DNA of 64,000 nucleotides from Marsupella aquatica (Eukaryota > Plantae > Marchantiophyta): positions 14,201,934-14,265,933 of the forward strand of contig OZ316899.1 in NCBI GenBank assembly GCA_973895155.1. The letters run 5' to 3'. Below the pieces are notes generated by a model. The model ran no database searches, was not told the DNA's origin, and saw nothing but the letters and a program-made list of their open reading frames with translations. Position 1 is the stretch's first letter. Each line of letters begins with the position of its first letter. Positions 1 to 26,027 of this stretch are shown here, piece after piece. A program made the position numbers and the translations under genes.

Positions 1-2538
1 TTTCCCTAAGCCGACGGATGACCTCGTCCTTCTTGCTTCTTTCCAAGGCCACCGCTTCTTCCAATTGGCGCTTCTCCAACATCTCCCTCTGGAAAAAGGG
101 TCCCTGCTCCAACTCCTCCCCAAATATGCTGAGCGCCAGTTCTCCACACATCTCCCCGTACTCCATGGCTCTGTCTTTAGCATAGTTGGAGGAAGTAGAA
201 GTCATCGGCATCATCCACCGCGGCCTCTGCTCCCAAGCCGTCTTGCGAATCTCTTCAATCGTGGCTAGAGGGTTTGCTTCCTTTTTTGGCTAGCCGCTTG
301 ATGTCCTCCGGCCAATCTCCTCCTGGAAAATCCTTTTCTCTAGCCAGGGCTGCCTCCTCTTCCTGCCTGATTCGCTCCTGAAATTCCTGCGCCGTCTATT
401 TTATGCCGTCAAAGCTCGGGGGAGCAACATCTGGTGGGGGAGACTCAGGGCTACTCTGCTGGTTGGGGTCCCCTCGTACTACCCTTGGAAGTGTGGGGAT
501 AAACCGGCCACAGGTCCTTACTCATGGAACGTGATGGTCCGACCCATAGCCGGAGTTATCATGGCTGCAATCCTCCACTGCCTCCTCTACTTCTTGGACT
601 TCCGGCTTCTCCCTCTCCTCTTTGGCCGTAGGAGCTTCAGGCAATTCTGCCTCAGATTCAGAGCTTGAGACTCCCACGTACATTCGAACACCCGGCTTGG
701 ATTCTGGCCTGATTCTCTCCTTGTCTCCAGTAAAGGGGTTTTCCCTTGTAAGCCGGTGTAGGCCTACCTCTGGAGCAGTGTCCTGCATTGTTGCCGTTGC
801 CATTGTCGTTGCCAATGCCGATCTCTTTTCTTTCTCCAGTAGTTTCAGCAGATTCTGCATGCCTGGTTGCTGCATCGGCAAGTCCTCCGTCCTTGGCCTA
901 AACACCTGCTCGATCGTAGGGCTAACAGGTGGTTGAGGCTTCTCTGCTACCGGCCTCGGTGCTGGAGCTTCCTCGGGTGCCCTTACCTGCAGGGGAAGTA
1001 CTAGGGCAAAGGTCTGACCTCTGGCATACCGGCACAACAGCGGCATGTGATAGCCAAGCCGCGACACGCTCCCCATGCCGATTACCTGTTGCTCCTCCTT
1101 TAAGATCTTCTTCAATTGGTTGAGGAGGTACCCGTTGTAGTCCCGGCTTGGGTCTGGCCTCTCTGCCAGATAGACCTGTGCCTTGCCGATCTCTGCCCTC
1201 GGCAAGTTACAGTGCATGGTCACCCGCAAGAAGTCGATCATCTCTCCTATGTGTGGGTTGGTGCAGGTGTTCCGGAAGAAGCCATTCTTCGTTGATGGCC
1301 CGGGGAACGACCGGAACTCCTTGTCAGGCAAGGTCTTCCTGGTATCAACTTTGGTCTTATTGCCTATCGGCAAGCCAAACACTTCGGCAATCACCTTGGG
1401 AGTAAGATAGAAATCCTTCCCATATATCCTCGTGCAATTGGTCTCGGGTTCCCATGACCCCACGAATTCTAATAGGTCTGAATCCGGCACCTCTGGCTTC
1501 AGCCATGGTAATCTTACAAAGGCCTCTAAGCCGGATCCGGCCATGAAGCCTTGGTACTTCTTGGTCTGCATGGCCGTATAACATGCATCCTCCTCCCGTG
1601 CAAAATGTAGTTGCACCTCCACCGGTAGGGTTGCCGCCCAGCCTTTCCAGGTGTCATCCCTGGTTGGAATGGCATTGATGGGATCGACCTCCTCCTCTTC
1701 GGCTTCTCCCTGCCTCTTGCTCTGCTGCTCGGCTGGCTTCCTTGGTGCCACCGACCTCGTTCTTTTTGCCGGGGTGGCTTCATCGTTGACGGCTCCCTTC
1801 CTCTTCATCTCTGCTGCCGTGGAGGTTTCTCCTAGCACCGTTGCCGGGGTCCACCTTTCCGTGCTACCCTTCAATTCCCAGTGTATGTCGTTGCAGTTCT
1901 TGATGGCCTCTCGAATGCCGATGATTCTGTCTTCATAAAACAGAAGATCGTCGAGCTGATTGGAAGTAGGAGTCCACAAGAACTCGGCGTTGATGAGTTT
2001 GCCTCCTAAGAAAGCCGTCTTCTGCAGCTCCCACAATCGAGCGAGCTCCTGCCATTCTCGAGCTGCCCTTTCTGATTCCTCGTCCTCGTAAGTCTTGATG
2101 TACTGAGTTGCCTGTTCGAACAGGCATCCCCAGAAATGTGCCGCTTGATTGACGTTGCTCATACCCTCCTTAGGTCGATCGTTGGTATTTACTCTCTCCC
2201 CGAGTGCTTGCCTAAGCAGCTGACAGTAGTTGGCCTCCCGTAGTCGTTTGCCTAGTTCATGCTCGCAAATGAGCCACCATCTCCTGCAAGCACTCCTTAC
2301 CCCTCTCCTCTTCCGGTCCTTCCTCCCATTGATCCTTCCTAGCCGCCGACGCTTAACGCGCCCTAACCCTAATCGAGTTTTCACCCCCAGCGTCCTTACC
2401 TCCGGCCTCGGCCCGGGTTCCATGGTCGCCCCTAATTGTTTATATTTTCCTTGTTTTGTCCCTATACTAAGGTGTTTCTAGGGTGCATTCATGCTTTATC
2501 CACTTAACTGGCCGAGTGATTCCTGGCTAGGCATCACA
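1..2538 (-). mobile_element. Terminal part (probable LTR) of a second retroelement, 'family B', inserted into the family A 5' LTR; runs off the window
   Basis: Family A LTR homology starts abruptly at 2539 (=12661 minus the 10122 offset). It is immediately preceded by ...GCATCACA, i.e. a TGTGATGC terminus on the minus strand. The other end and TSD (predicted GGGTA) are outside the window. Confidence 0.75.
522..2423 (-). CDS. Family B accessory protein (Transposase_32/PMD-like domain plus Pro-rich linker), homologue of the family A LTR ORF; probable true start 2162
   Basis: 633-aa ORF. LPW..EFVGSWEPETNCTRIYGKDFYLTPKVIAEVFGLPIG aligns with family A LPW..EFVKNYDDTRQHTRLRGRNMSLTEERLRMIFGLPEG. 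Broken coiled-coil coding sequence continues in 1-521. TATAAA at 2444-2439 is too close to ATG 2423, favouring MSNVNQ at 2162. Confidence 0.7.
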   Translation of the reverse strand: MEPGPRPEVRTLGVKTRLGLGRVKRRRLGRINGRKDRKRRGVRSACRRWWLICEHELGKRLREANYCQLLRQALGERVNTNDRPKEGMSNVNQAAHFWGCLFEQATQYIKTYEDEESERAAREWQELARLWELQKTAFLGGKLINAEFLWTPTSNQLDDLLFYEDRIIGIREAIKNCNDIHWELKGSTERWTPATVLGETSTAAEMKRKGAVNDEATPAKRTRSVAPRKPAEQQSKRQGEAEEEEVDPINAIPTRDDTWKGWAATLPVEVQLHFAREEDACYTAMQTKKYQGFMAGSGLEAFVRLPWLKPEVPDSDLLEFVGSWEPETNCTRIYGKDFYLTPKVIAEVFGLPIGNKTKVDTRKTLPDKEFRSFPGPSTKNGFFRNTCTNPHIGEMIDFLRVTMHCNLPRAEIGKAQVYLAERPDPSRDYNGYLLNQLKKILKEEQQVIGMGSVSRLGYHMPLLCRYARGQTFALVLPLQVRAPEEAPAPRPVAEKPQPPVSPTIEQVFRPRTEDLPMQQPGMQNLLKLLEKEKRSALATTMATATMQDTAPEVGLHRLTRENPFTGDKERIRPESKPGVRMYVGVSSSESEAELPEAPTAKEEREKPEVQEVEEAVEDCSHDNSGYGSDHHVP

Positions 2539-2763
2539 GGGTACTTCTTCAACGGAGACAAATATATCGGTTTCTGGGAAGCATTGCTTCGGCTTCCGGA
2601 CAAGGTCTTCAATATCTCGGGTACGATCAACTTGCAATGACATCACTTCGACCACATCCCTACTCAGGTTCGGGCTATCATCAACAACAAGTCCACCACT
2701 ACCCATTCAACAAGGTCGTTCGCACTTGCTTCAGAGAACTTCTACCAGCACCTGCAGAGCTTC

Positions 2764-4890
2764 ATGGGAACTAGACCCGCAACCACCGGCGCCAACCCAG
2801 TGGACCCCATACCCGTACCCGTACCAATGCAGACTCAGGCTCAGGCTCAGCTTCAGGCTCAGCTTCAGTCTCAGCCTCAGCCTAGCCAACCCCCACCGCC
2901 GATCGCCCCGCCAGCAGTACAAGTACGCTCCATCATCAACGCTGTGGACCTTAGCGACGACGACGAGGCTACCCCACCCTTGCTCAGGCGGCTCAGAGGA
3001 GTAAACACTCAGGGGGCCGACACTACATCGTCCCCTCCCCATGCTCGGACCCAAGGAGCGGCTCCAGCAGACAACACGGTGACCGTGGCCGCCCCGGGAC
3101 CAATACTAACGGCGGTAGTACTACCTATGCCCGATCGAGAGGATGGGGAGGTGTCACCTTCCCCGAGCCAGTCACGGGGGAAGAAGAGGAAGGAACCCGC
3201 CACTGCATCCGGGTTACCATTGGCCACGGTAGCCGTGGCCAAGGTAACAATGCACCGCATGGGGGAAAACATGCATAAGAACATCCTCCATCCCAAGCAT
3301 GCGGTGTACCTGAAGACTCAGGGATTCGAGCACCTCGCCGCTCTGCCTTGGAACACTTGCAGGTACTACGGGGAGGACATGACAGAATTTGTCAAGAATT
3401 ATGATGATACACGTCAGCATACTCGGCTGCGGGGAAGGAATATGTCCCTCACGGAAGAACGCCTCAGGATGATCTTCGGATTACCCGAAGGTGACCATCG
3501 AGTCGAATCACGGGCTCCCGGGGGCAAGGGAGCCAAGTACCAATCCTCAAGTTTTCCCTCGGAAGGAGCAGTGGACAACTGGTTTGTGATGAGGACCTGC
3601 CTCATCCCCGAGATAGCTGAGCGACTGGAGTTCCAGAGGTACGCCCTCCACATGATGGAACCCTGGGGGGAGATCTCCGCCGCCCAGGTTATCCAGGTCG
3701 AGAACTATCGACCTAGGAAGTGGGCGTCGTACTTCGCTAAGAAATTCCATGAAGAGATGGAGCGGCGAAGGAAGACGCTGTACATTGGCGGGAAGGCGTA
3801 TTTCGCTAGCCACATCGAGATCATTCTTGAGTGGTATGCTCGGTTTGATCGACGAACCCTTCCCCGTGTCAACGTTACAAAGCTGGTCCCAGCTAGGTGG
3901 GTTTTTCCGGCCTTGGAGAGACGGCCCCAACCCGAGGCCCGAAGTCCAGCGGACACGCCAGCTTCACCCACCCCACCTCCACAAGTAGCTGTAGTCGTAA
4001 CCGAGGAGGTACCGGATGGGTCGGTTGTCGCAACCATTGATGCGATCCAACAGGCCGGGCTAAGTACAAAAGTCGGTACGACGGAGGTCTTACCCGAGCC
4101 CGGGTCTCCCAAAGACCCACCGGTGGCTATTCTGGAGAACCGAACATTGCTGCAGGAGGACACTCCAGCCCCTTCCAACATTACATCCCCAGGGCTGGAC
4201 GTCACTGCCCCGGCCCCCGCGCGTGTTGACGTCTGCCCGTGCCCAACTCCGGACAGGCACAACCTGGACCACCCGGAACTCTTCGTACCGGGTACATTTC
4301 TGAACGGGCTTCTGGGAGATTTCTCTCATCAAATTGCCCGGGATACCGGGGAGTTCATGGCCCGGAAGGTAGCATGTTTCTTCAATCAGGAGTTAGTTGC
4401 CGCAGTAAAGGCAGGTCGGTCCCAGTCAGAGGCCCTTCAGAGGATAGAGCGGTACCGGGTGGAGTCCGTCTACTTAAAGAATGAAGTTGCAGCTCAAGAG
4501 GCTGAGCTTCTGCAACTACGACCCAAGGTTGCAGCCGCCGATGATTTGTTAGCAAAGGCGCACGCCCTTACCGCCCTAGCCGAGCAGGCCAAAGCTGGGA
4601 ACGAGGCCGAGATTGCACGACTCCGGAACCAGATTGACAGTTTGAAGAATCAAACTGTCATCTGGCAGAAGGACCTGGAGGAGGCCGAAGAACGGGCCCA
4701 GCGGGACACTACGGAGATAGCCACGCTGCAGGCCGAGGTGGCGCGGCTCCAAACCGAGGCCGAGAAGCAGGACCAGCTGGCGGGTAAACTGACGAGCGAC
4801 GCCCAGCAGCTAGAGGAGGCATGTCAGGAGGCAGCAGAGGAGACGGATGCGGCGAGGCGAGAGAACGAATCTCTGCTGGACCAGGTCTAG
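2764..4890 (+). CDS. LTR-encoded accessory protein, longest open stretch (708 aa): Pro/Gln-rich region, Transposase_32/PMD-like domain, C-terminal coiled coil
   Basis: ORF lies wholly inside the LTR. The ancestral frame extends to TAG at 4977; the stop at 4888 is CAG>TAG relative to the solo LTR copy. Confidence 0.8.
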   Translation: MGTRPATTGANPVDPIPVPVPMQTQAQAQLQAQLQSQPQPSQPPPPIAPPAVQVRSIINAVDLSDDDEATPPLLRRLRGVNTQGADTTSSPPHARTQGAAPADNTVTVAAPGPILTAVVLPMPDREDGEVSPSPSQSRGKKRKEPATASGLPLATVAVAKVTMHRMGENMHKNILHPKHAVYLKTQGFEHLAALPWNTCRYYGEDMTEFVKNYDDTRQHTRLRGRNMSLTEERLRMIFGLPEGDHRVESRAPGGKGAKYQSSSFPSEGAVDNWFVMRTCLIPEIAERLEFQRYALHMMEPWGEISAAQVIQVENYRPRKWASYFAKKFHEEMERRRKTLYIGGKAYFASHIEIILEWYARFDRRTLPRVNVTKLVPARWVFPALERRPQPEARSPADTPASPTPPPQVAVVVTEEVPDGSVVATIDAIQQAGLSTKVGTTEVLPEPGSPKDPPVAILENRTLLQEDTPAPSNITSPGLDVTAPAPARVDVCPCPTPDRHNLDHPELFVPGTFLNGLLGDFSHQIARDTGEFMARKVACFFNQELVAAVKAGRSQSEALQRIERYRVESVYLKNEVAAQEAELLQLRPKVAAADDLLAKAHALTALAEQAKAGNEAEIARLRNQIDSLKNQTVIWQKDLEEAEERAQRDTTEIATLQAEVARLQTEAEKQDQLAGKLTSDAQQLEEACQEAAEETDAARRENESLLDQV

Positions 4891-5192
4891 CTCCTCAAGG
4901 CGGACAATGACAGGCTTCGAAGGCAGCGGGATGGCCGCTCCCATTCGGGCGGCTCTGGCAAGCGTGCCAGGCATTAGCAGCGGAGCAGGAATAGATTAGG
5001 ATTAGGACTAGCTTAGTCAGGCTCTTGGGACAGGCACCTGCCTTAGGTACAGCAGCGCTGCCATGCTGTCCAGCCTGCGTAGATTAGGATCTTCTAATAA
5101 GACACAGCCGTTTTCCGGCCTGACTGTCAGCTTAGTTAGGACCTTAGTCAGCGAATCTTCGGCGAGAGGACACCCCGTCCCTCGGCCCTTAG

Positions 5193-5199
5193 TATTTAG
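5193..5199 (+). promoter_or_regulatory. Putative TATA-like box for genomic RNA (TATTTAG); second copy at 15315-15321
   Basis: Followed by GCACCCCTCGGTAGAGGCAGGGGG; a very similar motif follows TATATAGAG in the different LTR at 45115-45078 (minus). Confidence 0.5.
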
Positions 5200-5884
5200 T
5201 GCACCCCTCGGTAGAGGCAGGGGGTTTTTTAGTCTCAGAGTTGGACATCCGTGGTATGTGCGGGGAGTCCCGGCCTCTGGGAGTGAAAGAGTACCAAGGG
5301 GAGGGGGTAGGACTAAGCTCACCGGGCGAGTGCGGAGCCGGGCTCCATTGTAGTATACTCTCTCGGCCTTGAACCTGTTCATTCCGGAGCTATCAGGTCA
5401 ACCAAGTGTACGCACATGTCCCCTATGTAGTAAAATCCTTTCCCATTATTTCCTTCGTGTAAATCGAGATTGTATGCTTGTGCGTGTGTATGTGTGTGTG
5501 AATCTCGTGTATAGGTGACAACGCCGGGCCGAACGCACTATCCGAATCATGCACGAGGTGCAGCTTGCGGGGATGTGGTTGCGAGCACAGGTTGAGGACC
5601 TGTATCATGGAATCCGGATCAAAGGCGGACAACACGAAGGCTTAGAAGTTCTTAAGCCGGGGTCGATCCTGTTATCGACTAAGGTACGTTCCGGCGGCGG
5701 AACACAAACCATACCTAGGAGATGTCTGTATCTAACAGTAGGCGCACTTAGCGCTAGTTTACGTGAATTAGGTGCATTACGCGCTTCCCTCCCTGCCCGA
5801 ACCCTCAGATTTACGAGGGATGTGCCCGTCTAAGCTGAAGTCTGAGTTAAGGCCGAAGCCGACGATGTGACATAGCCTTTGTTT

Positions 5885-5902
5885 TGGCGCTAGATGGAGG
5901 GG
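5885..5902 (+). promoter_or_regulatory. Primer-binding site, tRNA-Asn(GUU)-like
   Basis: TGGCGCTAGATGGAGGGG is one mismatch from the complement of the plant tRNA-Asn 3' end as recalled (TGGCGCTAGAAGGAGGGG); it starts 12 nt after the LTR CA. Confidence 0.8.
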
Positions 5903-5995
5903 GCACTCTACATATCATAGAGGGGAGACATGTGCGTATTCACCTAGGCAGGATACATCAGGACGTAGTACTAACCATCGCATTTATATGAGTAA

Positions 5996-8692
5996 ATGCC
6001 CGTCACTCGTTCTCAAGCAGCTTACTTGAGGAGATTGACCAGCGAACGAGAAAGTGCAACCATGACAAGTTCCGATTCTTCGGGCTCGGAGGACTCGCAC
6101 TCGCCCCGACGTATGAACATACCCCCGGGACCTTCAGGGTCCTGTTCGACCGCACCTGCTGCGGTTCCTCTGCCACCACCACCACCACCGCCACCTCCAC
6201 CACCACCTATGGCAGCCGCTCCACCGATGGCCCGCGCTGCTCAAGCTCCTCCACAAATATCGCAACGATCGCGATTTCATTATCGACCTTTCAAGGGGCG
6301 TCATGGGGATGATCCAGATGAATGGTTGGATGAGTTTGAAGCCACTGCTAAAGCTAATGGGGAAGACGCCATTAAGCTAACCGTCCTCCCGGGAGTGATG
6401 CGGGGAGAAGCTCGTCCATGGTACAACTCGTTGCCACCCGGGACTACATGGGCACAATTCCAAGCTGCATTGCTGCAGGAGTTTTGTGCCATTGGATCAG
6501 AACAGCGTTCTCTATTAAAGATTGGCCAGCTTCGCATGGGAAAGAAGGAGTCCCTGCGGAAGTTGATTCATAAGTTTCAGAAACTTGCGACCAAGATCTG
6601 GCCCAGGCCGGGAGACGCGCTCCAGCTTACATGGTTCCTTCATGGTTTGCCCACGAATATGCAATTCTGGGTACGCCAGAATAATCCAATTTCAATGCAG
6701 GCGGCCATAGCGTGCGCCGAAACTTACCGGGAGTCCACCTATAACTCCCGGCGGAGCCAGCGAGCACGCCGCAAGAAGGGTAAGTACGAGACCTTCAGTG
6801 ACAATGACTTTGAATCGGACGACGAGAGGAAGAAGAAAGGCAAGAAGAAGAAACATCGTTCGACCTCGTCCAGCTCGGAGACGGAATCCAGTTCGGATTC
6901 AGCTTCAAGCATCGGATCCTCTACCTCCAGTTCATCAGGAAGTGACTCGGAGAGCGAAAGCCGGAGCAAAAAGAAGAAGAGACGAGTGAAGAAGGAGGGG
7001 AAGATCAAACCCCGGGCGCGAAGAACGATACCAGATCCAAAGGCTGCCGAAGCAGACAAGCTGAACGAAATCACGGATCGACTCAAAGCACTGTCAGTAC
7101 ATCTTGCGGAAAAGCCGGTGGAGAAGAAGAAGCCATCTGAGATTCGAGCCCATGCGTGGTGTTCAAAGTGCTTCCAATCCGGCCATGTGGTGCAGGAATG
7201 CCCAAGGTGGAAGAACCGAGTTCACCAAGTAGAGCTGGATGATGTTGACAACCCGGGTCCCGAATCGGAGTCCACGGAGTATTTCTTTGAGGACCCTCCT
7301 GATTCCGTGTACCAGATTTCAACGGTAGGTCCGCGTAATTTAGCGGGTAGAACTGCGTACCCCTACCCAAACAATGGCCGGAGTTTCCAGGTTATCAGTA
7401 ACCCGAGCATCCCTCCTAAGCCAGGGATTTGGCGATCCCCGGTTTGTTATAACTGTGAAAAGCCAGGACACTTTGCGAGGGAATGCACCAAACCAAGACG
7501 CCAGGGGGATGGCCGTGGCACGCCACTTTGTCAAGTCTGCAAAACGGAAGCTCATTCCACGGCCAACTGTCCATTGGTCATGGCCGCTCGAACAAATGCA
7601 GCAAGACCAGCCCAGGGCGGACCGACCACGAGTGATGCGGTCATCCAAATGATTGCGGTGGAATGGCAGGATGACAATACCGAGTGGGTGAATCTGGTGG
7701 ACGTGGCGGAACACCCTAATCCATCTGACGAGGCTGAGTGCTATCGTGTGTCAACAAGAGCTGAACGGAAGGAAGAGAAGCAGGAGGAGAAACGCAGGAA
7801 AAAGCAAGATACTACTCCGATGCAGCCAGTGATAGATATACCCCCGGAGAAGGACGATGACTACCGACGGGACGACTCGAAGCTATTTTTCCCCCGCATC
7901 GAAGAATTGGTAAAGAAACAGTTGGAGGCCTACGAAGCTCGGGAATACCAGAAGGCAATCGATAAGGACATCAAAGCAACCGAGATAGCCCGGCGACAGG
8001 AGCAAGAAAAGCAAGATAAGCAAGAGGAAGCCAAGCAGCAGCCGAAGGAAGAAAAGAAGGAGGACTATGATATTAAGGAGGACGTGAAGAGTTGCCCGGT
8101 TACAGCAACGGTAGGACAACTACTGCAAAACAATCCACAGTACAGACGGCAACTGAGGGAGTTGCTTACGGGTCGACAACGGAGACGACTACCCCAAGTT
8201 GGGACCGCGGATTGCAACATGATATGCGAGGACCTGGGAGCGCCGGACATCTCGATTGAAATTAATAATTGTACCATCAGGATGGTTCTTGTAGACGGAG
8301 GAGCGGGAGTCAACATCATGACGGAAGAGACGTCAGTCAAGTTAGGATACCTCACGTATCAACCCACAGCCCGAGCTATCAGATTAGCAAACGGGGCAAG
8401 GGTACTTCCATTGGGCACGCTTACACGGGTACTCACTCTGGTAGGAGGGGTGGAGTTCTATCTCAACTTCCTAGTCATGAGGCCGGTTCGGCCCTCCTCT
8501 TATCTGATCCTCCTAGGCAGGCCGTGGCTGTACGGTGGCCGTGTGGTCACGGATTGGGGAAAGAAGGAGCTACGGTTTGGGACACCCACCGTATATGGGT
8601 ATCATGGGCAATGGACGATTATCAGGGAGAAACCCCACAAGGACCCGAGGAATATGATTTGGAGACCTTGGAGGAAGAGGAACTCAATATGA
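5996..8692 (+). CDS. gag: Gag (capsid, three CCHC knuckles) and aspartic protease
   Basis: PFKG..DPDEWLDEFE capsid start; CSKCFQSGHVVQEC, CYNCEKPGHFAREC, CQVCKTEAHSTANC; protease VLVDGGAGVNIM and ILLGRPWL; frameshift near 8590. Confidence 0.93.
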   Translation: MPVTRSQAAYLRRLTSERESATMTSSDSSGSEDSHSPRRMNIPPGPSGSCSTAPAAVPLPPPPPPPPPPPPMAAAPPMARAAQAPPQISQRSRFHYRPFKGRHGDDPDEWLDEFEATAKANGEDAIKLTVLPGVMRGEARPWYNSLPPGTTWAQFQAALLQEFCAIGSEQRSLLKIGQLRMGKKESLRKLIHKFQKLATKIWPRPGDALQLTWFLHGLPTNMQFWVRQNNPISMQAAIACAETYRESTYNSRRSQRARRKKGKYETFSDNDFESDDERKKKGKKKKHRSTSSSSETESSSDSASSIGSSTSSSSGSDSESESRSKKKKRRVKKEGKIKPRARRTIPDPKAAEADKLNEITDRLKALSVHLAEKPVEKKKPSEIRAHAWCSKCFQSGHVVQECPRWKNRVHQVELDDVDNPGPESESTEYFFEDPPDSVYQISTVGPRNLAGRTAYPYPNNGRSFQVISNPSIPPKPGIWRSPVCYNCEKPGHFARECTKPRRQGDGRGTPLCQVCKTEAHSTANCPLVMAARTNAARPAQGGPTTSDAVIQMIAVEWQDDNTEWVNLVDVAEHPNPSDEAECYRVSTRAERKEEKQEEKRRKKQDTTPMQPVIDIPPEKDDDYRRDDSKLFFPRIEELVKKQLEAYEAREYQKAIDKDIKATEIARRQEQEKQDKQEEAKQQPKEEKKEDYDIKEDVKSCPVTATVGQLLQNNPQYRRQLRELLTGRQRRRLPQVGTADCNMICEDLGAPDISIEINNCTIRMVLVDGGAGVNIMTEETSVKLGYLTYQPTARAIRLANGARVLPLGTLTRVLTLVGGVEFYLNFLVMRPVRPSSYLILLGRPWLYGGRVVTDWGKKELRFGTPTVYGYHGQWTIIREKPHKDPRNMIWRPWRKRNSI

Positions 8693-8997
8693 TTGAACTC
8701 ATCTCGTCCCTGTCCGAGGAAGATGTCTTCAGAGTTGAAGCAACCCGCGAAACACATCTCCTAAATTACCCGAGGGCTGCCATTGAGTCCACCCCAAGCA
8801 CATCTACTGCCGGGGATGAGGAAACGCACGAACAACTCGTCGAGACGGAGGACACGGCTCCAGCTAAGCAGGGAGCCGAGGCTGCTTCTACCGTTGCAGA
8901 GCCTCGTGACCACGAACCAGCCCAACAACCGCCCGAGGCCGAAAACTCGAGACCGAGACATAAGAAATGAGTCTCATGGGATCCGTCCATTCCACAA

Positions 8998-10104
8998 TTG
9001 GAGGAAGTAACTCCAATCCCGAGACCAATCCCGGTTCCACCCATGTACGGAGAAGTTCGGTTAGCTGAGCTTGATGCGAGCCTGGACCCGAGCCTGCGAA
9101 ACCAGGTTGAAGTCATCAGGAAGGAGCACTACCGGAAGTACACCATTGGGATGGACAAATCTTTTAACCTGGGCCACGCTCTGACAGGGGAGGCTGAAAA
9201 ATCCATCCAAGCTTTGCTCAAGGAATATAAAGATGTGTTTGCATGGAGCCATCATGATTTAACAGGAGTCTCCCCCGAGTTAGAAGAACACACGATCGAT
9301 TTGAATCTGGGGGCCCATGCAGTACGGCAGCGACAATGTCGCATGAACCCAAGGTACTCCATCTTAGTGAAGGAGGAAATTGATCGTCTCCTCGCCGCAG
9401 ATATCATCTACCCGGTAATGGCCAGCGACTGGGTCTCTCCCATCGTCATTGTACCGAAAAAAGGAGGAACGGACGGAAAACCTAAGATCCGGATTTGTCA
9501 GGACTATCGTAAGCTGAACGACGCAACCCAAAAAGACCATTACCCGTTACCATTCACGGATATGGTTCTAGATATGGTAGCCCGAAATGAAATTTATACA
9601 TTCCTTGACGGGTATTCGGGTTATAACCAAATCTGGATTCGCCTCTCGGATCAGCTCAAAACAACGTTCACTATGGAATGGGGGACTTTCGCATTTCGGA
9701 GAATGCCGTTCGGATTGTGTAACGCTCCGACCATGTTTCAACGACTCATGATGAATATCTTCCATGACTTCCTACGGGAATTTCTGGAGATATTTATCGA
9801 CGACTTCGCCATCTTTGGAACTGTCGCCATGCACCCCGAACACCTAAGATGTACGTTCCAACGATGCCGAGAGGTTAACCTCAAACTACATCCCGCTAAA
9901 TGTTTTTTCGGGGTAGAGGAGGGAGTATTACTCGGGCATCGTGTGTCCAAACGGGGTATCGAGGTGGACCAAGAGAAGGTCGCGGCCTGGATGGCGGTGG
10001 TGTTTCCCGTAGATCAAAAAGCGGTACGATCCTTCTTGGGCTGTGTAGGGTATTACCGTCGGTTTATTAAAGACTTTGCTAAAATAGCGCTGCCCCTTGA
10101 CTGA
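8998..10104 (+). pseudogene. pol: Pol reverse transcriptase segment (stop at 8968, frameshift near 10100)
   Basis: WVSPIVIVPKKGG, DYRKLNDATQKDHYPLP, FLDGYSGYNQI, MPFGLCNAP, FIDD. Confidence 0.95.
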
Positions 10105-12007
10105 GATGATGAAAAAGGACGCGGTGATCGAGGAGACACCCAGGAGACGGATTGCTTTCGAAGAACTCCGTAAAAGACTCACCACCGCACCTATCATGGT
10201 CACTCCAGACTGGAATAAGGAGTTCCACGTGTATGTCGATGTGTCAGGGTTCTGTATTGGATCCGTGCTCAGTCAGCTTGATGAGAACGGACGCGACCAC
10301 CCCATCTACTTCGCTAGCCGTCAATTATTCACAGCCAAAAAGAATTATTCCCCCACTAATCGAGAAGCTCTGGGAATAATCTACTCGTGTAAAAAGTTCC
10401 GATACTATCTGCTAGGCTACAAGGTCATATTCCACACGGATCATGATAGCCTGAAGTACATGGTCAACAAAGCGGACGTGACGGGATGGATAGCCCGGTG
10501 GGTGCTACTTCTCCAGGAATTTAACTACAAAGTTCGGGTTTGGCCCGAAAAGGCACACCTCAATGCCGACTTCTTTTCAAGGCTGGACGGCGTACCAGTC
10601 GATCAGCCAATTGATGATATTTTTCCGGATGAGGAGTTGTTCCACGTAGGGGCGGGGATGCCAACGTGGTACGGCTCAATTATCACCTTCCTCTTGACAG
10701 GCCGCATCCCTGACGGCATCAATCAGGAAGCCGCCGCTATGTTTCTACGGAAAGCCGGGCCTTACGTCATGGTACAGGGTCACCTACATAAGGAAGGAGT
10801 TAATGGGAAGTTACGACGCTGCTTGGAGTATAAGGAGACGCTTATCGTGATGCGGGCCTTGCATGAAGAAGAAGCTGGAGGTCATTTCGCAGCTATCACA
10901 ACAGCCCGAAAGATTCTGGACTCCGGATATTGGTGGCCTACGTTGCATCGGGATGTACAATGCTTCATCAAGGGCTGTGACCTGTGTCAGCGGGCTAGGG
11001 CCCCAAGACGAGCTCATCATCACCCTCTCACGTCCGTACTTCCATTAGCACCGTTCGAAAAGTGGGGTATTGATTATATCGGGCCATTTACTCCCGTTAC
11101 CCGAAGACGAAGATGCAGGTACATCCTGCTAGCTATTGATTACTCCACCAAGTGGGTCGAAGCACGGGCTACGGTGAAGGACGACGCCGCAACCAGCGCC
11201 AGGTTCTTATATGAACAAATTTTCACCCGGTTCGGCCCACCCTTAGAATTGGTAAGCGACCGTGGAACCCACTTCCTCAATGACACCGTAGCCCGGCTTA
11301 CGGAGCGTTACCTAGTCAAGCACCGCAAGACTACCCCGTATCATCCTAAGGCCAACGGGATGACAGAGAGAGCCAATGGTATCATTGGGAAAATCCTCAA
11401 CAAGACGGTAGCGGCGCACAAAATGGATTGGGATGATAAGTTGTATGCAGCGGTGTACTCGTATAATCTTGCTTACAAAACTACTACGAGTCACAGCCCG
11501 TACTTTCTCGTGTTCGGCCAACATTCGTTGGTACCCGTCAAGTTTGAAGTACACACTCCACGAGTCAGCATTCGGGATCGCTTACCTGAACCTGAAAGTT
11601 CGTCAGACCGAGCTTATCAGATTGAAGCCCTAGAAGAAGCACGGCTACTAGCAGCTCAACACGCCGTGAAGAAACAGGCAACTTCGAAGAAGCAGCACGA
11701 CAAAGGACTACGGAGGGTTGACGTCGTGGCAAGCGATCTAGTCCTTCTGTACGATAGTAGGTACATGCAGTTTCCAGGGAAGCTTCATACCCGGTGGTTA
11801 GGGCCCTTCCTTGTCAATCAGATCTACCGTAACGGATCTTTGGAGCTTGCGACATATGCCAGCGATTTACTCCCCACGCGAATCAGCTACGATCGTGTAA
11901 AAAAGTACCACCATCAAGATGACGACGCCGAGAGTGATGTTTGCGAGGACGCTTCACAATTAAGCAGGGAGCTATGTGACGCCGCTGGTACGGCGGTTAA
12001 TGAGTGA
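10097..12007 (+). pseudogene. pol: Pol RNase H and integrase segment; reads 33 nt into the 3' LTR
   Basis: VYVDVSGFCIGSVLSQ, NYSPTNREALG, TDHDSLKY; HHCC (H..GGH..C..C), GIDYIGP, SDRG, NGMTERAN, WLGPF. Confidence 0.95.
11962..11974 (+). promoter_or_regulatory. Short polypurine tract
   Basis: AAGCAGGGAGCTA directly before the LTR start TGTGAC at 11975. Confidence 0.55.
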
Positions 12008-12333
12008 TTCAGTCTAACTGCGCTCAGCACGCGCGTTAGGAGTGTCTTAGGCCGCTATTATTAGCATAACGACAGTATTTAGGTAATCATTATGGGTAGG
12101 ACATCATTAGGCAATAAGGGGGAATTCAGGTTCGGACTGGCGACGGATCGCTATTTGCACACCCGGGTTACGAGCGTGGAGGGGCCCCTCCCTCGGGTCC
12201 GTATAACGAACTTAAGGAAGCGGCCACTGACACGCGCTGACTCAGACCGGCGGAGTGGCCGGTACACCACAAGCGTGAGCGGTTCAGCCTATGGGCATCG
12301 AGGAGATGTCGGGGGATCGGCAAGCCCTCAAGG

Positions 12334-12340
12334 TATAAAA
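12334..12340 (+). promoter_or_regulatory. TATA box for the LTR-encoded ORF
   Basis: GGTATAAAAAGGG about 100 bp before ATG 12442; conserved in both minus-strand copies (near 20358 and 25373). Confidence 0.65.
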
Positions 12341-12441
12341 AGGGAGCCGACCCTTTGGAGTGCACCAGTCCATCAGTCCACGCGCCAGCTTCGACCCCAG
12401 CTCTCTCGTTCGCTCTAAGTCGCCACTACTATCTCCTCTGA

Positions 12442-15099
12442 ATGTCGCACACAATCCTCTCCAGCTCGGCCATTCGATTCTGGACGCAGTTCCTATCTAC
12501 CGAAAGGCACTTGGCCGACTCATTGAAACACGCCAACCCGCGCTGATACAAAATCAAACGCGAGTACGAGAGAGCCATCCGCCTAGCAGGACGACACCAC
12601 TACATCCTTAACTTTGACTACCTGTCTCAAAGCGAGCTTTACCGACCAGCAGAGGTATCTGGGTACTTCTTCAACGGAGACAAATATATCGGTTTCTGGG
12701 AAGCATTGCTTTGGCTTCCGGACGAGGTCTTCAATATCTTGGGTACGATCGACTTGCAATGACATCACTTCGACCACATCCCTGCTCAGGTTCGGGCTAT
12801 CATCAACAGCGAGTCCACCACTACCCGTTCGACAAGGTTGTCCGCACTTGCTTCGGAGAACTTCTACCAGCACCTGCAGAGCTTCATGGGAACTAGACCC
12901 GCAACCACCGGCGCCAGCCTAGTGGACCCCATACCCATACCCGTACCAACGCAGACTCAGGCTCAGGCTCAGCTTCAGGCCCAACTTCAGTCTCAGCCTC
13001 AGCCTAGCCAACCCCCACTGCCGATCGCCCCGCCAACAGTACAAGTACGCTCCGTCATCAACGCTGTGGACCTTAGCGACGATGACAAGGCTACCCCACC
13101 CTTGCTCAGGCGGCCCAGAGGAGTAAACACTCAGGGGGCCGACACTGCATCGTCCCCTCCCCATGCTCGGACCCAAGGAGCGGCTCCAGCAGACAACACG
13201 GTGATCGTGGCCACCCCGGGACCAATACTAACGGCGGTAGTACTACCTATGCCCGATCGAGAGGATGGGGAGGTGTCACCTTCCCCGAGCCAGTCACGGG
13301 GGAAGAAGAGGAAGGAACCCGCCACTGCATCCGGGTTACCATTGACCACGGTAGCCGTGGCCAAGGTAACAATGCACCGCATGGGGGAAAACGTGCATAA
13401 GAACATCCTCCATCCCAAGCATGCGGTGTACCTGAAGACTCAGGGATTCGAGCACCTCGCCGCTCTGCCCTGGAACACTTGCAGGTACTACGGGGAGGAC
13501 ATGACAGAATTTGTCAAGAATTATGATGATACACGTCAGCATACTCGGCTGCGGGGAAGGAATATGTCCCTCACGGAAGAACGCCTCAGGATGATCTTCG
13601 GATTACCCGAAGGTGACCATCGAGTCGAATCACGGGCTCCCGGGGGCAAGGGAGCCAAGTACCAATCCTCAAGTTTTCCCTCGGAAGGAACAGTGGACAA
13701 CTGGTTTGTGATGAGGACCTGCCTCATCCCCGAGATAGCTGAGCGACTGGAGTTCCAGAGGTACGCCCTCCACATGATGGAACCCCGGGGGGAGATCTCC
13801 GCCGCCCAGGTTATCCAGGTCGAGAACTATCGACCTAGGAAGTGGGCGTCGTACTTCGCTAAGAAATTCCATGAAGAGATGGAGCGGCGAAGGAAGACGC
13901 TGTACATTGGCGGGAAGGCGTATTTCGCTAGCCACATCGAGATCATTCTTGAGTGGTATGCTCGGTTTGATCGATGAACCCTTCCCCGTGTCAACGTTAC
14001 AAAGCTGGTCCCAGCTAGGTGGGTTTTTCCGGCCTTGGAGAGACGGCCCCAACCCGAGGCCCGAAGTCCAGCGGACACGCCAGCTTCACCCACCCCACCT
14101 CCACAAGTAGCTGTAGTCGTAACCGAGGAGGTACCGGATGGGTCGGTTGTCGCAACCATTGATGCGATCCAACAGGCCGGGCTAAGTACAAAAGTCGGTA
14201 CGACGGAGGTCTTACCCGAGCCCGGGTCTCCCAAAGACCCACCGGTGGCTATTCTGGAGAACCGAACATTGCTGTAGGAGGACACTCCAGCCCCTTCCAA
14301 CATTACGTCCCCAGGGCTGGACGTCACTGCCCCGGCCCCCCCGCGTGTTGACGTCTGCCCGTGCCCAACTCCGGACAGGCACAACCTGGACCACCCGGAA
14401 CTCTTTGTACCGGGTATATTTCTGAACGGGCTTCTGGGAGATTTCTCTCATCAAATTTCCCGGGATACCGGGGAGTTCATGGCCCGGAAGGTAGCATGTT
14501 TCTTCAATCAGGAGTTAGTTGCCGCAGTAAAGGCAGGTCGGGCCCAGTCAGAGGCCCTTTAGAGGATAGAGCGGTACCGGGTGGAGTCCGTCTACTTAAA
14601 GAATGAAGTTGCATCTCAAGAGGCTGAGCTTCTGCAACTACGACCCAAGGTTGCAGCCGCCGATGATTTGTTAGCAAAGGCGCACGCCCTTACCGCCCTA
14701 GCCGAGCAGGCCAAAGCTGGGAACGAGGCCGAGATTGCACGACTCCGGAACCAGATTGACAGTTTGAAGAATCAAACTGTCATCTGGCAGAAAGACCTGG
14801 ACGAGGCCGAAGAACGGGCCTAGCGGGACACTGCGGAGATAGCCACGCTGCAGGCCGAGGTGGCACGGCTCCAAACCAAGGCCGAGAAGCAGGACCAGCT
14901 GGCGGGTAAACTGACGAGCGACGCCCAGCAGCTGGAGGAGGCATGTCAGGAGGCAGCAGAGGAGACGGACGCGGCTAGGCGAGAGAACGAATCTCTACTG
15001 GACCAGGTCTAGCTCCTCAAGGCGGACAATGACAGGCTTCGAAGGCAGCGGGATGGCCGCTCCCATTCGGGCGGCTCTGGCAAGCGTGCCAGGCATTAG
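12442..15099 (+). pseudogene. Full-span LTR-encoded ORF (885 codons) with in-frame stops
   Basis: Single frame from MSHTIL to GKRARH*; stops at ~12544, 12760, 13975, 14275, 14560, 14821, 15010, all CGA>TGA or CAG>TAG. Confidence 0.85.
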
Positions 15100-15994
15100 C
15101 AGCGGAGCAGGAATAGATTAGGATTAGGACTAGCTTAGTCAGGCTCTTGGGATAGGCACCTGCCTTAGGTACAGCAGCGCTGCCATGCTGTCCAGCCTGC
15201 GTAGATTAGGATCTTCTAATAAGACACAGCCGTTTTCCGGCCTGACTGTCAGCTTAGTTAGGACCTTAGTCAGCAAATCTTCGGCGAGAGGACACCCCGT
15301 CCCTCGGCCCTTAGTATTTAGTGCACCCCTCGGTAGAGGCGAGGGGGTTTTTAGTCTCAGAGTTGGACATCCGTGGTATGTGCGGGGAGTCCCAGCCTCT
15401 GGGAGTGAAAGAGTACCAAGGGGAGGGGGTAGGACTAAGCTCACCGGGCGAGTGCGGAGCCGGGCTCTGTTGTAGTATACTCTCTCGGCCTTGAACCTGT
15501 TCATTCCGGAGCTATCGGGTCAACCAAGTATACGCACATGTCCCCTATGTAGTAAAATCCTTTCCCATTATTTCCTTCGTGTAAATCGAGATTGTATGCT
15601 TGTGCGCGTGTATGTGTGTGTGAATCTCGTGTATAGGTGACAACGCCGGGCCGAATGCACTACCCGAATCGTGCACGAGGTGCAGCTTGCGGGGATGTGG
15701 TTGCGAGCACGGGTTGAGGACCTGTATCATGGAATCCGGATCGACGGCGGACAACACGAAGGCTTAGAAGTCCTTAAGCCGGGGTCGATCCTGTTATTGA
15801 CTAAGGTACGTTCCGGCGGCGGAACACAAACCATACCTAGGAGATGTCTGTATCTAACAGTAGGCGCACTTAGCGCTACTTTACGTGAATTAGGTGCATT
15901 ACGCGCTTCCCTCCCTGCCCGAACCCTCAGATTTACGAGGGATGTGCCCGTCTAAGCTGAAGTCTGAGTTAAGGCCGAAGCCGACGACGTGACA

Positions 15995-16167
15995 TAGCCT
16001 TTGTTTTGGCGCTAGATGGAGGGGGCACTCTACATATCGTAGAGGGGAGACATGTGCGTATTCACCTAGGCAAGATACATCAGGACGTAGTACTAACCAT
16101 CGCATTTATATGAGTAAATGCCCATCACTCGTTCTCAAGCAGCTTACTTGAGGAGATTGACGTGACA
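15995..16167 (+). mobile_element. Second PBS, leader and gag start, fused to the last bases of an LTR
   Basis: 15995-16161 repeats 5873-6039 (PBS at 16007-16024), then GTGACA. Confidence 0.85.
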
Positions 16168-16874: not shown

Positions 16875-19800
16875 TTGGGAGGCACGGAATGCACCTAACT
16901 CACATAAACTAGCGCTAAGTGCGCCTATTGTCATATACGGACACCTCTTAGGTATGGTTTGTGTTCCGCCGCCGGAACGTACCTCAGTCAATAGCAGGAT
17001 CAACCCCGGCTTATGGGCTTCTAAGCCTTTGTGTTGTCCGCCTTTGATCCGGATTTGATGGTATGGGTACTCAACCCGGGCTCGCAACCACTTACCCCGC
17101 AAGCTGCACCCCGTGCACGACTTGGGTAGTGCGTTCGGCCAAGCGTTGGCACCTATACACGAGATTCACACATATACATACGCACAAGCATACAATCTCA
17201 ATTTACACGAAGGAAATAATGGGAAAGGATTTTACTAGATAAGAGACATAAGCGTACACTTAGTTGACCCAAAAGCTCTAGAATGAACAGGTCCGAGGCC
17301 AAGGGTGTACACTACAACGGAGCCCGGCTCCGCACTTGCCCAGCAAGCTTAGTCCTACACCCTCCCCTTGGTACTCTTTCACTCCCAGAGGTCGGGACTC
17401 CCCGCACATACCACGGATGTCCAACACTGAGACTAAAAATCCCCCTGCCTCTACCAAGGGGTGCACTAAATACTAAGGGCCGAGGAACAGAGTGCCCTCA
17501 CGCCCGAAGATTTGCTAACTAAGATCCTAACTAAGGTGGCTGTCAGGCCGGAAAACGGCTTGTCTTATTAGAAGATCCTAATGTACGCAGGTTGTACAGC
17601 ATGGCAGTGCTACTTTAACTAGGGCAGGTGCTTGTCCCTATAGCCTAATTTAACTACTCCTACTCTATTTTAATCATACTCTGCCGCTAATGTCTAGCAC
17701 GCTTGCCAGAGCCGCCTGAGTGGGAGCGGCTATCCCGCTGCCTTCTGAGCCTGTCGGCGTCCTGCTTGAGTAGCTGGACCTGGTCCAGCAGAGATTTGTT
17801 CTCCCGCTTTGCCGCATCTGCCTCTTTCGCGGCCTCCTGGCATGCCTCCTCCAATTGTTGGGTGTCGTTCGTCAGCTTATCCACCAACTAGGCCTGTTTC
17901 GTGACTTCTCCTTGAAGCCGCGCCACCTCTGCCTTCAGGGTGTCAATCTGGGCTGTGTCCCACTAAGACCTGGAGTCAGCTTCCTCCAGATCCTTTTGCC
18001 AACTGACAGCTTGCCCCTTCAAACCATCAATCTTGGTCCGGAGCCGCGCGATCTCGACGTCCTTTCCGAGCCCGGCCTGTATTGCTAATGCTGCTTGGGC
18101 CCTAGCCTCGACAATCTGGTCCTCCGTGGCCGTTACCTGAGGCCGTAGTTGGTGGAGTTCAGCCTCCAGGGTTGCCACTTTGTCCTTCAAGTAGGCAGAC
18201 TCAACCCGATATCGCTCTATTCTCTGCGTTGTCTCTGCCTGTGCATGTCCTGCCCTTACTACCGCAACCAACTCCTGGTTGAAGAAGTAGGCCACCCTCC
18301 GGGCCATGTATTCCCCGGTGTCCCAAGAGATCTGTTGAAAGAAATCTCCCAACAACCCGTTCAAAAATGTGCCCGACACAAAGAGTTCCGGATGGTCTAG
18401 ACTGTGACCTTCTGGATTCGGGCACAAGCAGACTCCAACCCGTGCGGGTGTAGGAGTGGACACATCCAGCCCTTGAGGTAAGTTGGTCAAAGGGGCTGGT
18501 TCCACTGGAGGTGGGCGGTTTTCCTGCACCACCGCGGGGGGTGGCGGAATCCCCTTGGCTACCGTGGCATCTGCTTTGGGTACAGCTTCATCCGGCCCGA
18601 CTTTGATTGCATTATCCCGATTGATCGCGTGTAAGGTCGCGATAACGTCAATGGGTATGCCTGGCGGGGTGGCAGAGGCTGGTTGCGGTAGCAGGACTTG
18701 CAGCCGCCAGACTTTGGTCCTCGGGCTGCGGTCGCCTCACCTGGGCTGGGAACACCCATTTTGGCGGGGTCAGCTCGGGCTCGTTGAGATGCGGGAGGCT
18801 CTGGCGGTCGAAACGAGCATACAGCTCGATGATGATTTTGATGTGGCTAGCGAAGTACGCCCTTCCGCCAATGTACAAAGTCTTCCTTCTCCGCTCCATC
18901 TCCTCGTGGAACTTCTTGACGAAGAAGGACGCCCACTTCCTGGGCCGATATTTCTCCTCTGGGTTCCATCATGTGGAGGGCATACTGCTGGAACTCCAGG
19001 CGTTCTGCTACCTCCGGGATGAGGCACGTCCTCATTAAGAACCCATTGTCCACTACCCCCTCGGCCGTGAAGCTAGATGACTGGTATTTAGCTCCCTTGT
19101 CCCCAAGAGCCCGCGATTCTACCCAGTTTATCCCCTCGGGTAAGCCCAAAATCATCTTCAGACGTGCCTCATTGAGAAAAATCACTCTCCCATGCGCTCT
19201 GGTTTGTTGACGGGCCTTGTCGAAGTTCTAAATGAACTCCGTCATATCCTGCCCGTAGTACCTACTTCCATTCCAAGGGAGAGAGGCAAGGTGCTCAAAC
19301 CCTTGGGTCTTCATATAGCATGTATGCTTGGGGTGGAGGATGTTCTTGTGAACGTTGTCCCCCATGCGATGCATGGTCAGCTTGGCTACCGCAACCGTGG
19401 CCAAAGGCAACCCGGATACGGCTGCGGGCTCCTTCATCTTCCTACCCCAAGACTGATTCCCGGGGTGACTAGAAGAGGGGGGCATCTCTCCATCCTCTCG
19501 GTCAGGTGGTGGTAGCGCGACTGCCGTGAGTATTGGTGCCGAGGCCGCTAGAGTTACTATGTTATCCCCTCGGGCTTGCTGGAGTGGTGCTGGGTTGTTC
19601 AGCGCTTGTTGAGTCGTACCCCGTGGCCGTCAATTCAGAGGAGGGTGAGCCTCCTCATCTTCGGAACTAATATTTACTGCATTCACCACGGATCGTACTC
19701 GGAGAGGCGGTGGGACCAGTGGTGGGGACCGGCTCGGCTGAGGCCGAGGAGGTGTAGGCGCGGGTACGGGCACGAGTTGGCCGGCGCTGGTCGTTGATGG

Positions 19801-20748
19801 TAGAGTTGCCATGAAGTTCTGCAGGTGCCGGTGGAGGTTCTCCGAAGCAAGTGAAGACGGCCTGGTTGACCGGGCAGTGTTGAACTCGCTATTGATGATA
19901 GCCCGGACCCAAGTGGGGATGTGGTCAAAGTGGTGCCGATGCAAGTCAATCGTGCCCGGGATATTGAAGACCTCGTCCAAAAGCCAAAGCAATGCCTCCC
20001 AGAAGCCGATGTATTTGCCTCTGTCGAAGAAGTACCCTGATACTTCTTCGGGTCGGTAAAGCTTGCTTTGGGACGGGTAATCAAAGTTAAGGAGATAGTG
20101 GAGTCGTCCTGCTAGGCAGATGGCTCTCTTGTATTTGCGTTCGATCTTGTATTGGCGCGGGTTGGCGTGTTTCAATGAGTCGGCCAAGTGCCCTCCGATA
20201 GACAGGAACCGAGTCCAGAATTGTATGGCCGAACTGGAAAGATCGTGTGCAACATTCAGAGGAGATAGCAGGTGACTAAGGAAAAGCGAGAGAGCCGGGG
20301 TTGAAGCTGGCGCGTGGACTAAAGAACTGGTGCACTGCAAAGGATCAACCCCCTTTTATACCCTGAGAGCTTGTCAACCGCCCGACGCCTCCTCGTCGCT
20401 TATAGGCCGAGCCTTTCACGCTCGCAGTGTACCAGCCCCTTTGCCGGTCCAGGTCAGCTTGTGTCAATGGCCGCCTCCCGGAGTTTGTTATACGGACCCG
20501 AGGGAGGGGGAAAGGGGGCCCATTACACGCTCGCAACCCGGGCGTGCAAATGGCAACCAGGGCGTGCAAATGGCAACCCGCCGCCAGCCCGAACATGAAT
20601 TCCCCTTATTGACTAATGATTTCCTACTCATAATAGCTACCTAAATACTGTCGTTATGCTAATAATAACGGCCTGAGATACCCCTAATGCGCGTGCTAAG
20701 CGCAGTTAGACAAAATCACTCATTACCCGCCGTACCGGCGGTGTCACA
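16875..20748 (-). mobile_element. Older diverged family A LTR (A3) with decayed ORF (17687-20255)
   Basis: Colinear with 11975-15910; starts TGTGACACCG at 20748; no pol or PPT adjoining; ORF fragments e.g. HKNILHPKH, HPELFVSGTFLNGLLGDF. Confidence 0.92.
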
Positions 20749-21701
20749 CCAGATCTTTCCCCACACAAACGTCCATCTGAATGCTCCTTGTCATCAGACG
20801 ACCCGATCTCCACATGCTTGCACACATCTCCCTCCGTGATGCTCTGGCCCCGCATCTCTGCTTCACTAGCACTCTGCCTACTGCGCGTCTCACTTTCGTT
20901 TGCACTCCTGGGTTTTTGAAGTAGATCCCTCATGGAATACCCACTGTGAAGGAGCAATCGCGTTACAGCCGTGCCACAGTAACAGGGATAACGTTTCATT
21001 CTTGGAAGCTTATCATCTGACAAATGCTTCCTCAACGCCACTATCTCACCCTTCAAGCAGTCCCAGACAAAATGAGCCCAGTCTGGCTTCAAAGTTGGAC
21101 ATTCAACATCTTGGGCCCGAACCTCTCCCGGGATTGTACTCCACCAGGAAGCCCAATACACCCACATGTCCTTTCTGGTTACTTGGGTGGGCTTTGTTTT
21201 CCCAAGAAGTAGCTTGTTTACAACCTTCACAGGCTCCTGCCAAAGCTTGAACACATCCGATAGGGTATCCAAATTCCAAGGGTTTGTGTGGTTCTGAGGC
21301 ACAATAAACATGGCATCCAGTTGGTCGGACACCCATGAATTTCAAAAATGTCCAAATTGCCCATTGGGCAGATGGAATGCAGCTTGCACTATTTCTTTGT
21401 CAAATTTCAGCAATGCACCCCGGAACATGCAACTGTCAGTGTCTAGGTCAAATGCTTGGACAAATTCGGTAACTCCAACAATCGCCACCCGTGGCCATTC
21501 CAACTGAAATGCCTCGACCAGATTTCCTGCCACCAACAAATTGTGCGTTCCAGGCTCACATTGCAGGCTGGAACGTATTTTCCTTGGAGTCATCGATTTC
21601 CATATGGTGCGGGTGACCCCTGCAAAAAGATTCCCCGTTCCTTCAAATACAGCTCCAATCCAATGTACATAACTCATAAAGTACAAACACAGGCGGCTTA
21701 C
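20749..21701 (-). pseudogene. Degenerate gene with the same Transposase_32/PMD-like domain; upstream exon probably at 25742-25900
   Basis: LEWP..VTEFVQAFDLDTDSCMFRGALLKFDKEIVQAAFHLPNG and KPDWAHFVWDCLKGEI..CYCGTAVTRLL; removing the solo LTR restores a phase-consistent GTGAGT...GAAG intron. Confidence 0.6.
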
Positions 21702-25732: not shown

Positions 25733-26027
25733 CTTACTCACCGTCACTGATATCCTCATCCTCTTGCGCGAGATCGATATTTGATCCTGGCGTCAAGGTA
25801 GTCATCCCTCCACAATGATGGTCGACTCCTTGCATGACAACGTCGATGGTCCCTCGACATGCCCCTCCTCAGTCCACAGCGTTCATCATTTGCATAGGGT
25901 GGTGAATCGATTGCCTCACGGCACCCCAACCCTAAAGTACCCCAAACATCCAAGCCAAAATACCCCGGTATCGACTCCTGGCTGCAGCAAATCTCAACAC
26001 CAAAATACCCCAATCATCAAAGGACTT

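Follow-up and report, generated by a model that had tools for sequence, protein, structure and literature searches.

Accessory genes in plant LTR retrotransposons

Protein-coding sequence within the U3 of an LTR is familiar from sag of MMTV and nef of HIV, both vertebrate retroviruses, the proteins of which are unrelated to those described below and much shorter. The extra ORFs of plant retrotransposons are common and mostly unexplained, and have been described from the internal region, where reviews place them (PMC7264820, PMC6317226); for the OTA elements, both such ORFs and LTRs of up to 5 kb are on record (PMC6317226, PMC7264820, PMC11963269, PMC3485330, PMC12844716). Athila elements carry a sense accessory gene between pol and the 3' LTR, with a Transposase_32-related core (Transposase_32, PF20167; ATHILA ORF-1, PF03078). 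A match to Transposase_32 has been reported for an Athila ORF of sunflower (PMC11728184), as has an extra PPT in Athila4 and Calypso (PMC2829016). Retrosat2/RIRE3 combines an LTR of over 3.2 kb with an extra ORF (ORF0), which is set apart by its description as upstream of gag-pol and not in the LTR (PMC3485330). From liverworts, the published passages report aRH-less Tat Z lineages (PMC10508981, PMC13468544).

A second line of comparison comes from DNA transposons. VANC21 is the accessory protein of VANDAL21, a Mutator-like transposon of Arabidopsis, and VANC is predicted to oligomerise through a coiled coil (PMC13547354). VANC proteins are reported to bring about sequence-specific methylation loss over their own transposons, the targets often being tandem repeats (PMC5735166). 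The VANC and PMD domains are described as structurally alike (PMC13547354, 10.1101/2024.09.27.615353), and the PMD and DUF1985 domains are tied to silencing control (10.1101/2024.09.27.615353). While VANC and certain PMDs are products of Mutator-like elements (PMC5418596, PMC5735166), PMD-A, which is placed with MAIN/MAIL1 in the reported fold group of VANC, is an extra ORF borne by Gypsy (Ogre) retrotransposons, described from angiosperms and left open as to its ancestry in the cited passages (PMC5418596). Within the literature covered (titles, the starts of abstracts and selected passages), no plant element with an LTR-internal gene was met, nor any VANC-like retrotransposon protein in liverworts; the VANC21 structure paper may discuss retrotransposon homologues.

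The locus considered here lies at the left edge of the window, i.e. the whole stretch of 64,000 nucleotides of Marsupella aquatica DNA that was analysed. Its first 2538 bases are a repeat (element B) seated in the LTR gene of another retrotransposon (family A). With a probability of roughly 0.6, B makes up the initial 2.5 kb of an LTR that carries a gene and belongs to a second family, and it encodes a predicted VANC21-like regulator; that second family would likely be a non-chromovirus Ty3/gypsy one. Features of both elements are collected in Table 1.

Table 1. Coordinates within the window of the features of element B and family A.
Feature	Position	Strand	Basis or remark
Element B	1-2538	minus	high-copy repeat; other end outside the window
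B gene, broken 3' continuation	1..521	minus	two stops, one shift of frame
B ORF from first ATG (2423)	522..2423	minus	second candidate start 2162
B Pro-rich linker after core	753..977	minus	16% Pro
B core domain, predicted VANC21-like (DUF1985/PMD/Transposase_32 superfamily)	987..1670	minus	model, pLDDT 87
B N-terminal domain, common to A gene and liverwort homologues	1857..2156	minus	profile match
TATAAA, candidate promoter, starting 95 bp inside B	2439..2444	minus	sequence
B outer terminus TGTGATG, inferred 5' LTR end	2532..2538	minus	sequence and contig ends
GGGTA, candidate right copy of B target-site duplication	2539..2543	plus	equals 12661-12665
A 5' LTR, holding rest of A ORF	2539..5872	plus	interrupted by B; junction at LTR position 687
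A internal region	5873..11974	plus	
A PBS-like TGGCGCTAGA	5885	plus	12 bases past LTR
A gag-protease	5996-8692	plus	Pfam
A RT	8971-10104	plus	Pfam
A RNase H-integrase	10088-12007	plus	Pfam
A PPT	before 11975	plus	
A LTR2, 4.02 kb	11975..15994	plus	TATA at +360; ~0.9 kb non-coding tail
A LTR2 ORF	12442-15099	plus	7 internal stops in LTR2 copy
Diverged A LTR copy	16877..20749	minus	3' end cut
A solo LTR, whole ORF inside	21702..25733	minus	CTTAC on both sides

Family A as the reference element

Family A displays paired TG..CA LTRs, a PBS, a PPT, the order gag-PR-RT-RH-INT and a solo LTR with its duplication. Pfam gives it one RNase H region and no additional RNase H domain, a Ty3/gypsy order that it shares with Athila. 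The two LTRs of the interrupted element are 97.8% identical (K2P 0.022). Over the core of the LTR gene, comparison with the diverged copy gives a dN/dS of 0.06-0.07 and comparison with the solo copy one of 0.14-0.16; over the whole ORF, the value between the two youngest LTRs is 0.81, as expected after insertion. Because the whole ORF (~885 codons) lies within a solo LTR of 4.0 kb bounded by the 5-bp duplication CTTAC, and because of the dN/dS of its core, family A carries its gene in the LTR. A large selected gene in that position is present in two copies per element and is kept when recombination leaves a solo LTR; tools for LTR annotation would misread such elements.

The comparison with described systems is accordingly one of partial likeness. 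Like its Athila counterpart, the accessory gene runs in sense and has a core related to Transposase_32; in contrast to Athila, the A ORF is found inside a 4 kb LTR (as that of B likely is too), survives in solo LTRs and carries an extra N-terminal domain. The long LTR with an extra ORF recalls Retrosat2/RIRE3. The A protein and its relatives possess a long coiled coil, as does VANC21, although the latter is encoded by a Mutator-like transposon and the A gene by a retrotransposon.

The closest named RTs to that of A belong to Calypogeia fissa (67-69%) and Riccia sorocarpa (58-60%). In an RT tree of 36 rows, which holds no labelled references, A and two Calypogeia rows are among the six members of one group (91/88), and 12 angiosperm rows lie outside it; A may belong to Athila or to an aRH-less Tat Z lineage. 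A search of viral contigs with the A RT found no locus.

Two side observations concern the LTR itself. The A pol frame (10088-12007) reads on across the PPT and takes in the initial 33 bases of LTR2. Between A subfamilies, the non-coding LTR parts (11975-12441 and 15011-15994) differ by 12-19%, whereas over most of the ORF the divergence at third codon positions is 43-63%; the lower divergence of the non-coding parts points to strong constraint on them.

Element B and its insertion site

The original prediction held that a second element, unrelated to A at the nucleotide level, ends in TGTGATG at 2538, has a TATA about 95 bp inside that end followed by a long ORF, and interrupts the 5' part of the A ORF. 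Each of these points was borne out, the element lying on the minus strand. A nucleotide comparison of B with the rest of the window (word size 7) gave a best E of 0.13 and no match at 1e-5, and the junction falls at codon 74 of the A ORF. B is a repeat in its own right: it is covered end to end, in all bins, in the four sequencing runs compared (49 to 15,388 contigs), and some of its words occur in 12 of 13 runs, half or more of all its words in two. In all four runs, contigs stop at position 2538 or pass there into mixed flanks (agreement 0.43-0.65), so that the end of B is real. The TATAAA is also retained in the loose-end lines of two other runs.

The first bases of B resemble the start of A LTR2 (eight of nine identical), and the B gene has the same orientation relative to the TG end as the A gene. 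The GGGTA to the right of the junction is identical to the empty site preserved in LTR2; B would have been placed by an integrase, with duplication of GGGTA. In one run (X5), a contig with a depth of 72.8, among neighbours with depths of 9-15, extends 18 letters beyond the end of B; the flank line of that run, read on the B strand, has a G-rich tract that by eye equals seven of the eight last bases before A LTR2. This hint of a PPT occurs in one mixed line of four contigs in one of the four runs, and four other lines at 2538-2539 lack it. The A/C-rich flank lines of two further runs (X2, X6) were discounted as PPT evidence because such letters may reflect tied counts where a line is mixed.

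With these features and the protein homology described below, B is quite likely a gene-bearing LTR. Were B instead an LTR element with its gene outside the LTR, the ORF would be either an upstream extra one preceded by a short 5' LTR (the type of Retrosat2 ORF0 and Ogre) or an antisense one within a plus-strand element ending in CATCACA (the type of Retand and Grande). Since LTR ends are inverted repeats, the single end of B gives no orientation, which would suit either form. Antisense ORFs of Retand often have Smc coiled coils, as described in PMC11963269, and the gene of one relative discussed below (L005) is internal. Against both forms, the minus strand of B has no CA-plus-PBS pattern, the distance from the outer end to the B ORF is 116 or 377 bp, comparable to that in A (468 bp), and the flank hint sets a PPT-like tract before the TG. 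A search with one pattern likewise found no PBS-like site in the 2538 bases of B, in which a plus-strand PPT and LTR start were sought by eye. Taken together, the two forms are improbable.

The B gene and its product

Returning to B as a gene-bearing LTR, its gene begins in a stop-free frame of 651 codons (2477-522, minus strand). Of the two candidate starts, the ATG at 2423 stands only 21 bases past the start of the TATA, and that at 2162 aligns with the starts of A and its relatives. The latter was dropped as the certain start, because indels at 2390-2393 in other B copies sum to three bases and leave the frame intact as far as the ATG at 2423, and because three of the four listed differences above 2162 are synonymous. 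Selection on the ORF is not evident, 11 of 23 differences in 525-2423 and eight of 19 below 2162 being synonymous, counts that rest on 40 of 469 differences listed. The region 2163-2423 (minus strand) would encode an N-terminal extension of 87 residues, very rich in Arg and Lys, with three Cys and one His within a short span and with no counterpart in A.

The B protein matches that of A at 27% over 246 aa by blastp (E 6e-18), its 75 bits comparing with 28 bits for the best among 1000 shuffles. The motifs LPW, EFV, FGLPxG and H...P..EI..AQV, by which the homology had been predicted, are present in both proteins, and TC..P.I.E was found in both by alignment. An N-terminal profile made without B matches residues 108-207 of B over nearly its full length (17.1 bits, E 5e-4), as against 9.3 bits for the best of 2000 shuffles. 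The model of this domain has a pLDDT of 66 and yielded only generic helical matches in a fold search (best Z 5.5).

A similar Pro-rich and coiled-coil architecture had also been proposed. Its Pro-rich part stands, the stretch after the core of A having 19% Pro. The 3' part of B has stops at 524-522 and 398-396 and a frame shift near 270-290, and what remains at the window edge is a short stretch rich in Glu, Arg and Leu. As this part is broken and cut by the edge, and as a C-terminal profile from seven relatives found no match in B 1-600, homology of the coiled coils did not emerge.

Predicted likeness of the core to VANC21

The core was modelled with good confidence and compared with 48,161 chains, among which only DNA-bound VANC21 scored above Z 2.0 (9lnk: Z 8.4, rmsd 4.2, 214 residues aligned; 9lnj: Z 8.7), the next chain scoring 2.0. 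The predicted likeness to VANC21 thus stands alone and covers the domain, though it is borderline in absolute score: Z 8.4-8.7 barely exceeds the best score that models lacking a clear match usually attain, the rmsd exceeds 4 and identity is 8%. With the B core as query, Foldseek reported nothing at E<=0.001 from the PDB or the viral library, and a sequence search of the PDB returned only weak coiled-coil rows. In Pfam, the B and A proteins belong to no informative family and match none of the DUF1985/PMD/Transposase_32 group, so that they differ from VANC21 in lacking a DUF1985 match. As for targets, no motif array was found in A non-coding DNA or in the first 376 bp of B (in the best case, the count was reached by 10 of 200 shuffles). 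In the LTR part of one metagenome relative (L002:1-1395), 35 copies of ATCCGG occur, a count reached by none of 200 shuffles, and these may constitute a target array.

By its predicted fold, the B protein would bind DNA and regulate its own element, most likely by countering silencing. An alternative that retains the gene-bearing LTR has the protein serve particle assembly, movement or integration targeting, comparable to the env-like proposals for Athila. The long coiled coil of A and its relatives would fit such roles, the more so as Athila-domain proteins are themselves predicted to form pentamers via coiled coils (PMC13547354); the missing motif arrays and an N-terminal domain that has neither an explanation nor a clear fold match are also in its favour. 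It is nonetheless rather unlikely, because VANC itself is predicted to oligomerise by a coiled coil in the same source, the PMD and DUF1985 domains, alike in structure, are connected with silencing control (10.1101/2024.09.27.615353), and no clear structural match was obtained other than that to a DNA-bound anti-silencing factor. A VANC21-like fold would give the class of extra ORFs a concrete, testable function.

Relatives and the position of the gene

A profile search with the gene family retrieved 74 representatives at E<=0.001 (26 at 1e-10). Among 20 clusters looked up, five were Calypogeia fissa, 14 were Logan proteins and one was a metagenome hypothetical protein; the nearest relative of B is P0122 (40%). 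Transposase_32 is matched by six of the 74 alignment rows at E<=0.1 (best 1.6e-7), and DUF1985 by P0192, the second-weakest family match (8e-5). PF10536 is matched by none of the 74 rows at E<=0.1 among the 25 families listed, which sets the family apart from the angiosperm PMD-A (PMC5418596), a retrotransposon-borne extra ORF as here. Searched with the B protein, viral contigs gave no locus and metagenome contigs 35 pattern matches, none of them confirmed. Word searches for B homologues gave none from 6030 candidates, and one from 7992 with the family alignment. One candidate locus (L001), which the family profile does not match, was taken as chance.

Two family members (P0171, P0177) adjoin pieces of DDE_Tnp_4 transposase, so the domain is no marker of LTR elements, and B might be a DNA transposon or other repeat sharing the domain superfamily. 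Such an origin would accord with the encoding of VANC and some PMDs by Mutator-like elements (PMC5418596, PMC5735166), and no RT is linked to B within the window; no transposase is seen within visible B either. The DNA-transposon reading is nevertheless very improbable: the end of B reads TG as does that of A; the N-terminal domain common to B and A is unmatched in the transposase-linked rows; and the core tree, a quick one with long branches that holds 46 of 67 rows (those under 140 core residues being dropped), puts B in a 40-row group separate from the transposase-linked rows and L005 (SH-aLRT 95). In the same tree, the path between B and A amounts to 4.07 changes per column.

The preferred reading of B as part of a gene-bearing LTR gains from relatives in which the gene and pol are on one contig. 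An RT scan of metagenome contigs gave 11 loci, seven of them (1.0-5.0 kb) without a family match. In L002, L003 and L006, the motif found ahead of the A LTR (pre-LTR motif) directly follows pol, then comes TG and, 500-660 bp farther along, an ORF. The TG start of L002 and that of L003 are inverted copies (seven and eight of eight) of the end of the respective element's 5' LTR. Agreement of the L003 ORF with the family is moderate by hhalign (79.5%, E 1.5e-5; with another profile 11%, E 0.003), those of L002 and L006 are short with weak scores, and all three contigs end within the ORF. L005 runs in the order pol, purine tract, TATA, homologous ORF (E 2e-19) and pre-LTR motif, its ORF being devoid of the N-terminal domain; it has an internal, Athila-like layout, with the gene before the apparent 3' LTR start. 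The pre-LTR motif pattern was composed after viewing the five sites that it finds.

The gene is likely to lie inside the LTR in B and in the metagenome elements L002, L003 and L006, while its place is not fixed for the lineage. The original prediction had regarded the gene-in-LTR design as an old trait of the lineage, conserved at protein level. For the gene this holds, given the 74 representatives, the long B-A path and the strong purifying selection among A subfamilies; the place in the LTR varies, as L005 illustrates.

Proposed mechanism and wider reading

The ancestral state is likely to have been an Athila-type sense accessory cassette with a TATA and an ORF of its own, placed, like that of L005, between pol and the 3' LTR. 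If plus-strand priming then shifted to a purine tract just after pol, the cassette would have been taken into the LTR, and the gene would therefore lie in U3 or a long R. The direction of this move, from internal to LTR, is suggested by one internal-type locus, L005. Each LTR would transcribe the gene from its own TATA; the core might bind short motifs in the non-coding DNA of the element, the coiled coil oligomerising the protein, and the bound protein could counter silencing or boost transcription of its own family. On this view, even a solo LTR would, like any other, form a complete cassette for expressing the regulator.

A broader and tentative proposal, which we hold to be possible rather than probable, is that a widespread bryophyte Ty3/gypsy lineage has turned its LTR into an anti-silencing module, an LTR-encoded VANC-fold protein binding the LTR motifs of its own family and solo LTRs supplying it in trans, far earlier than the VANC of dicots. 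The subject bears on the origin of PMD/VANC-type proteins, whether in Gypsy elements or in host genes.

Other features of the window

LTR2 is part of a tandem arrangement: a further PBS with 167 bp of internal sequence comes after it (15995-16161), cut by another repeat. A 0.7 kb repeat pair (16163-16874 and 33169-33875) is 95% identical; its first copy, at which no duplication is visible, connects two broken A pieces and is perhaps a recombination remnant. Between two A LTRs lies a broken remote member of the superfamily (20750-21696, minus strand; profile E 2e-7), which is closest to DDE_Tnp_4-linked proteins. The ORFs at 58544-59581 (minus) and 28612-29142 (plus) are alike by eye and match neither Pfam nor the family profile. 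Fragments of a CACTA-type transposase (Transposase_21, DUF4218) occupy 47553-50775 (minus), and an ORF with an RNase H1 N-terminal domain is located at 36246-36848 (plus).
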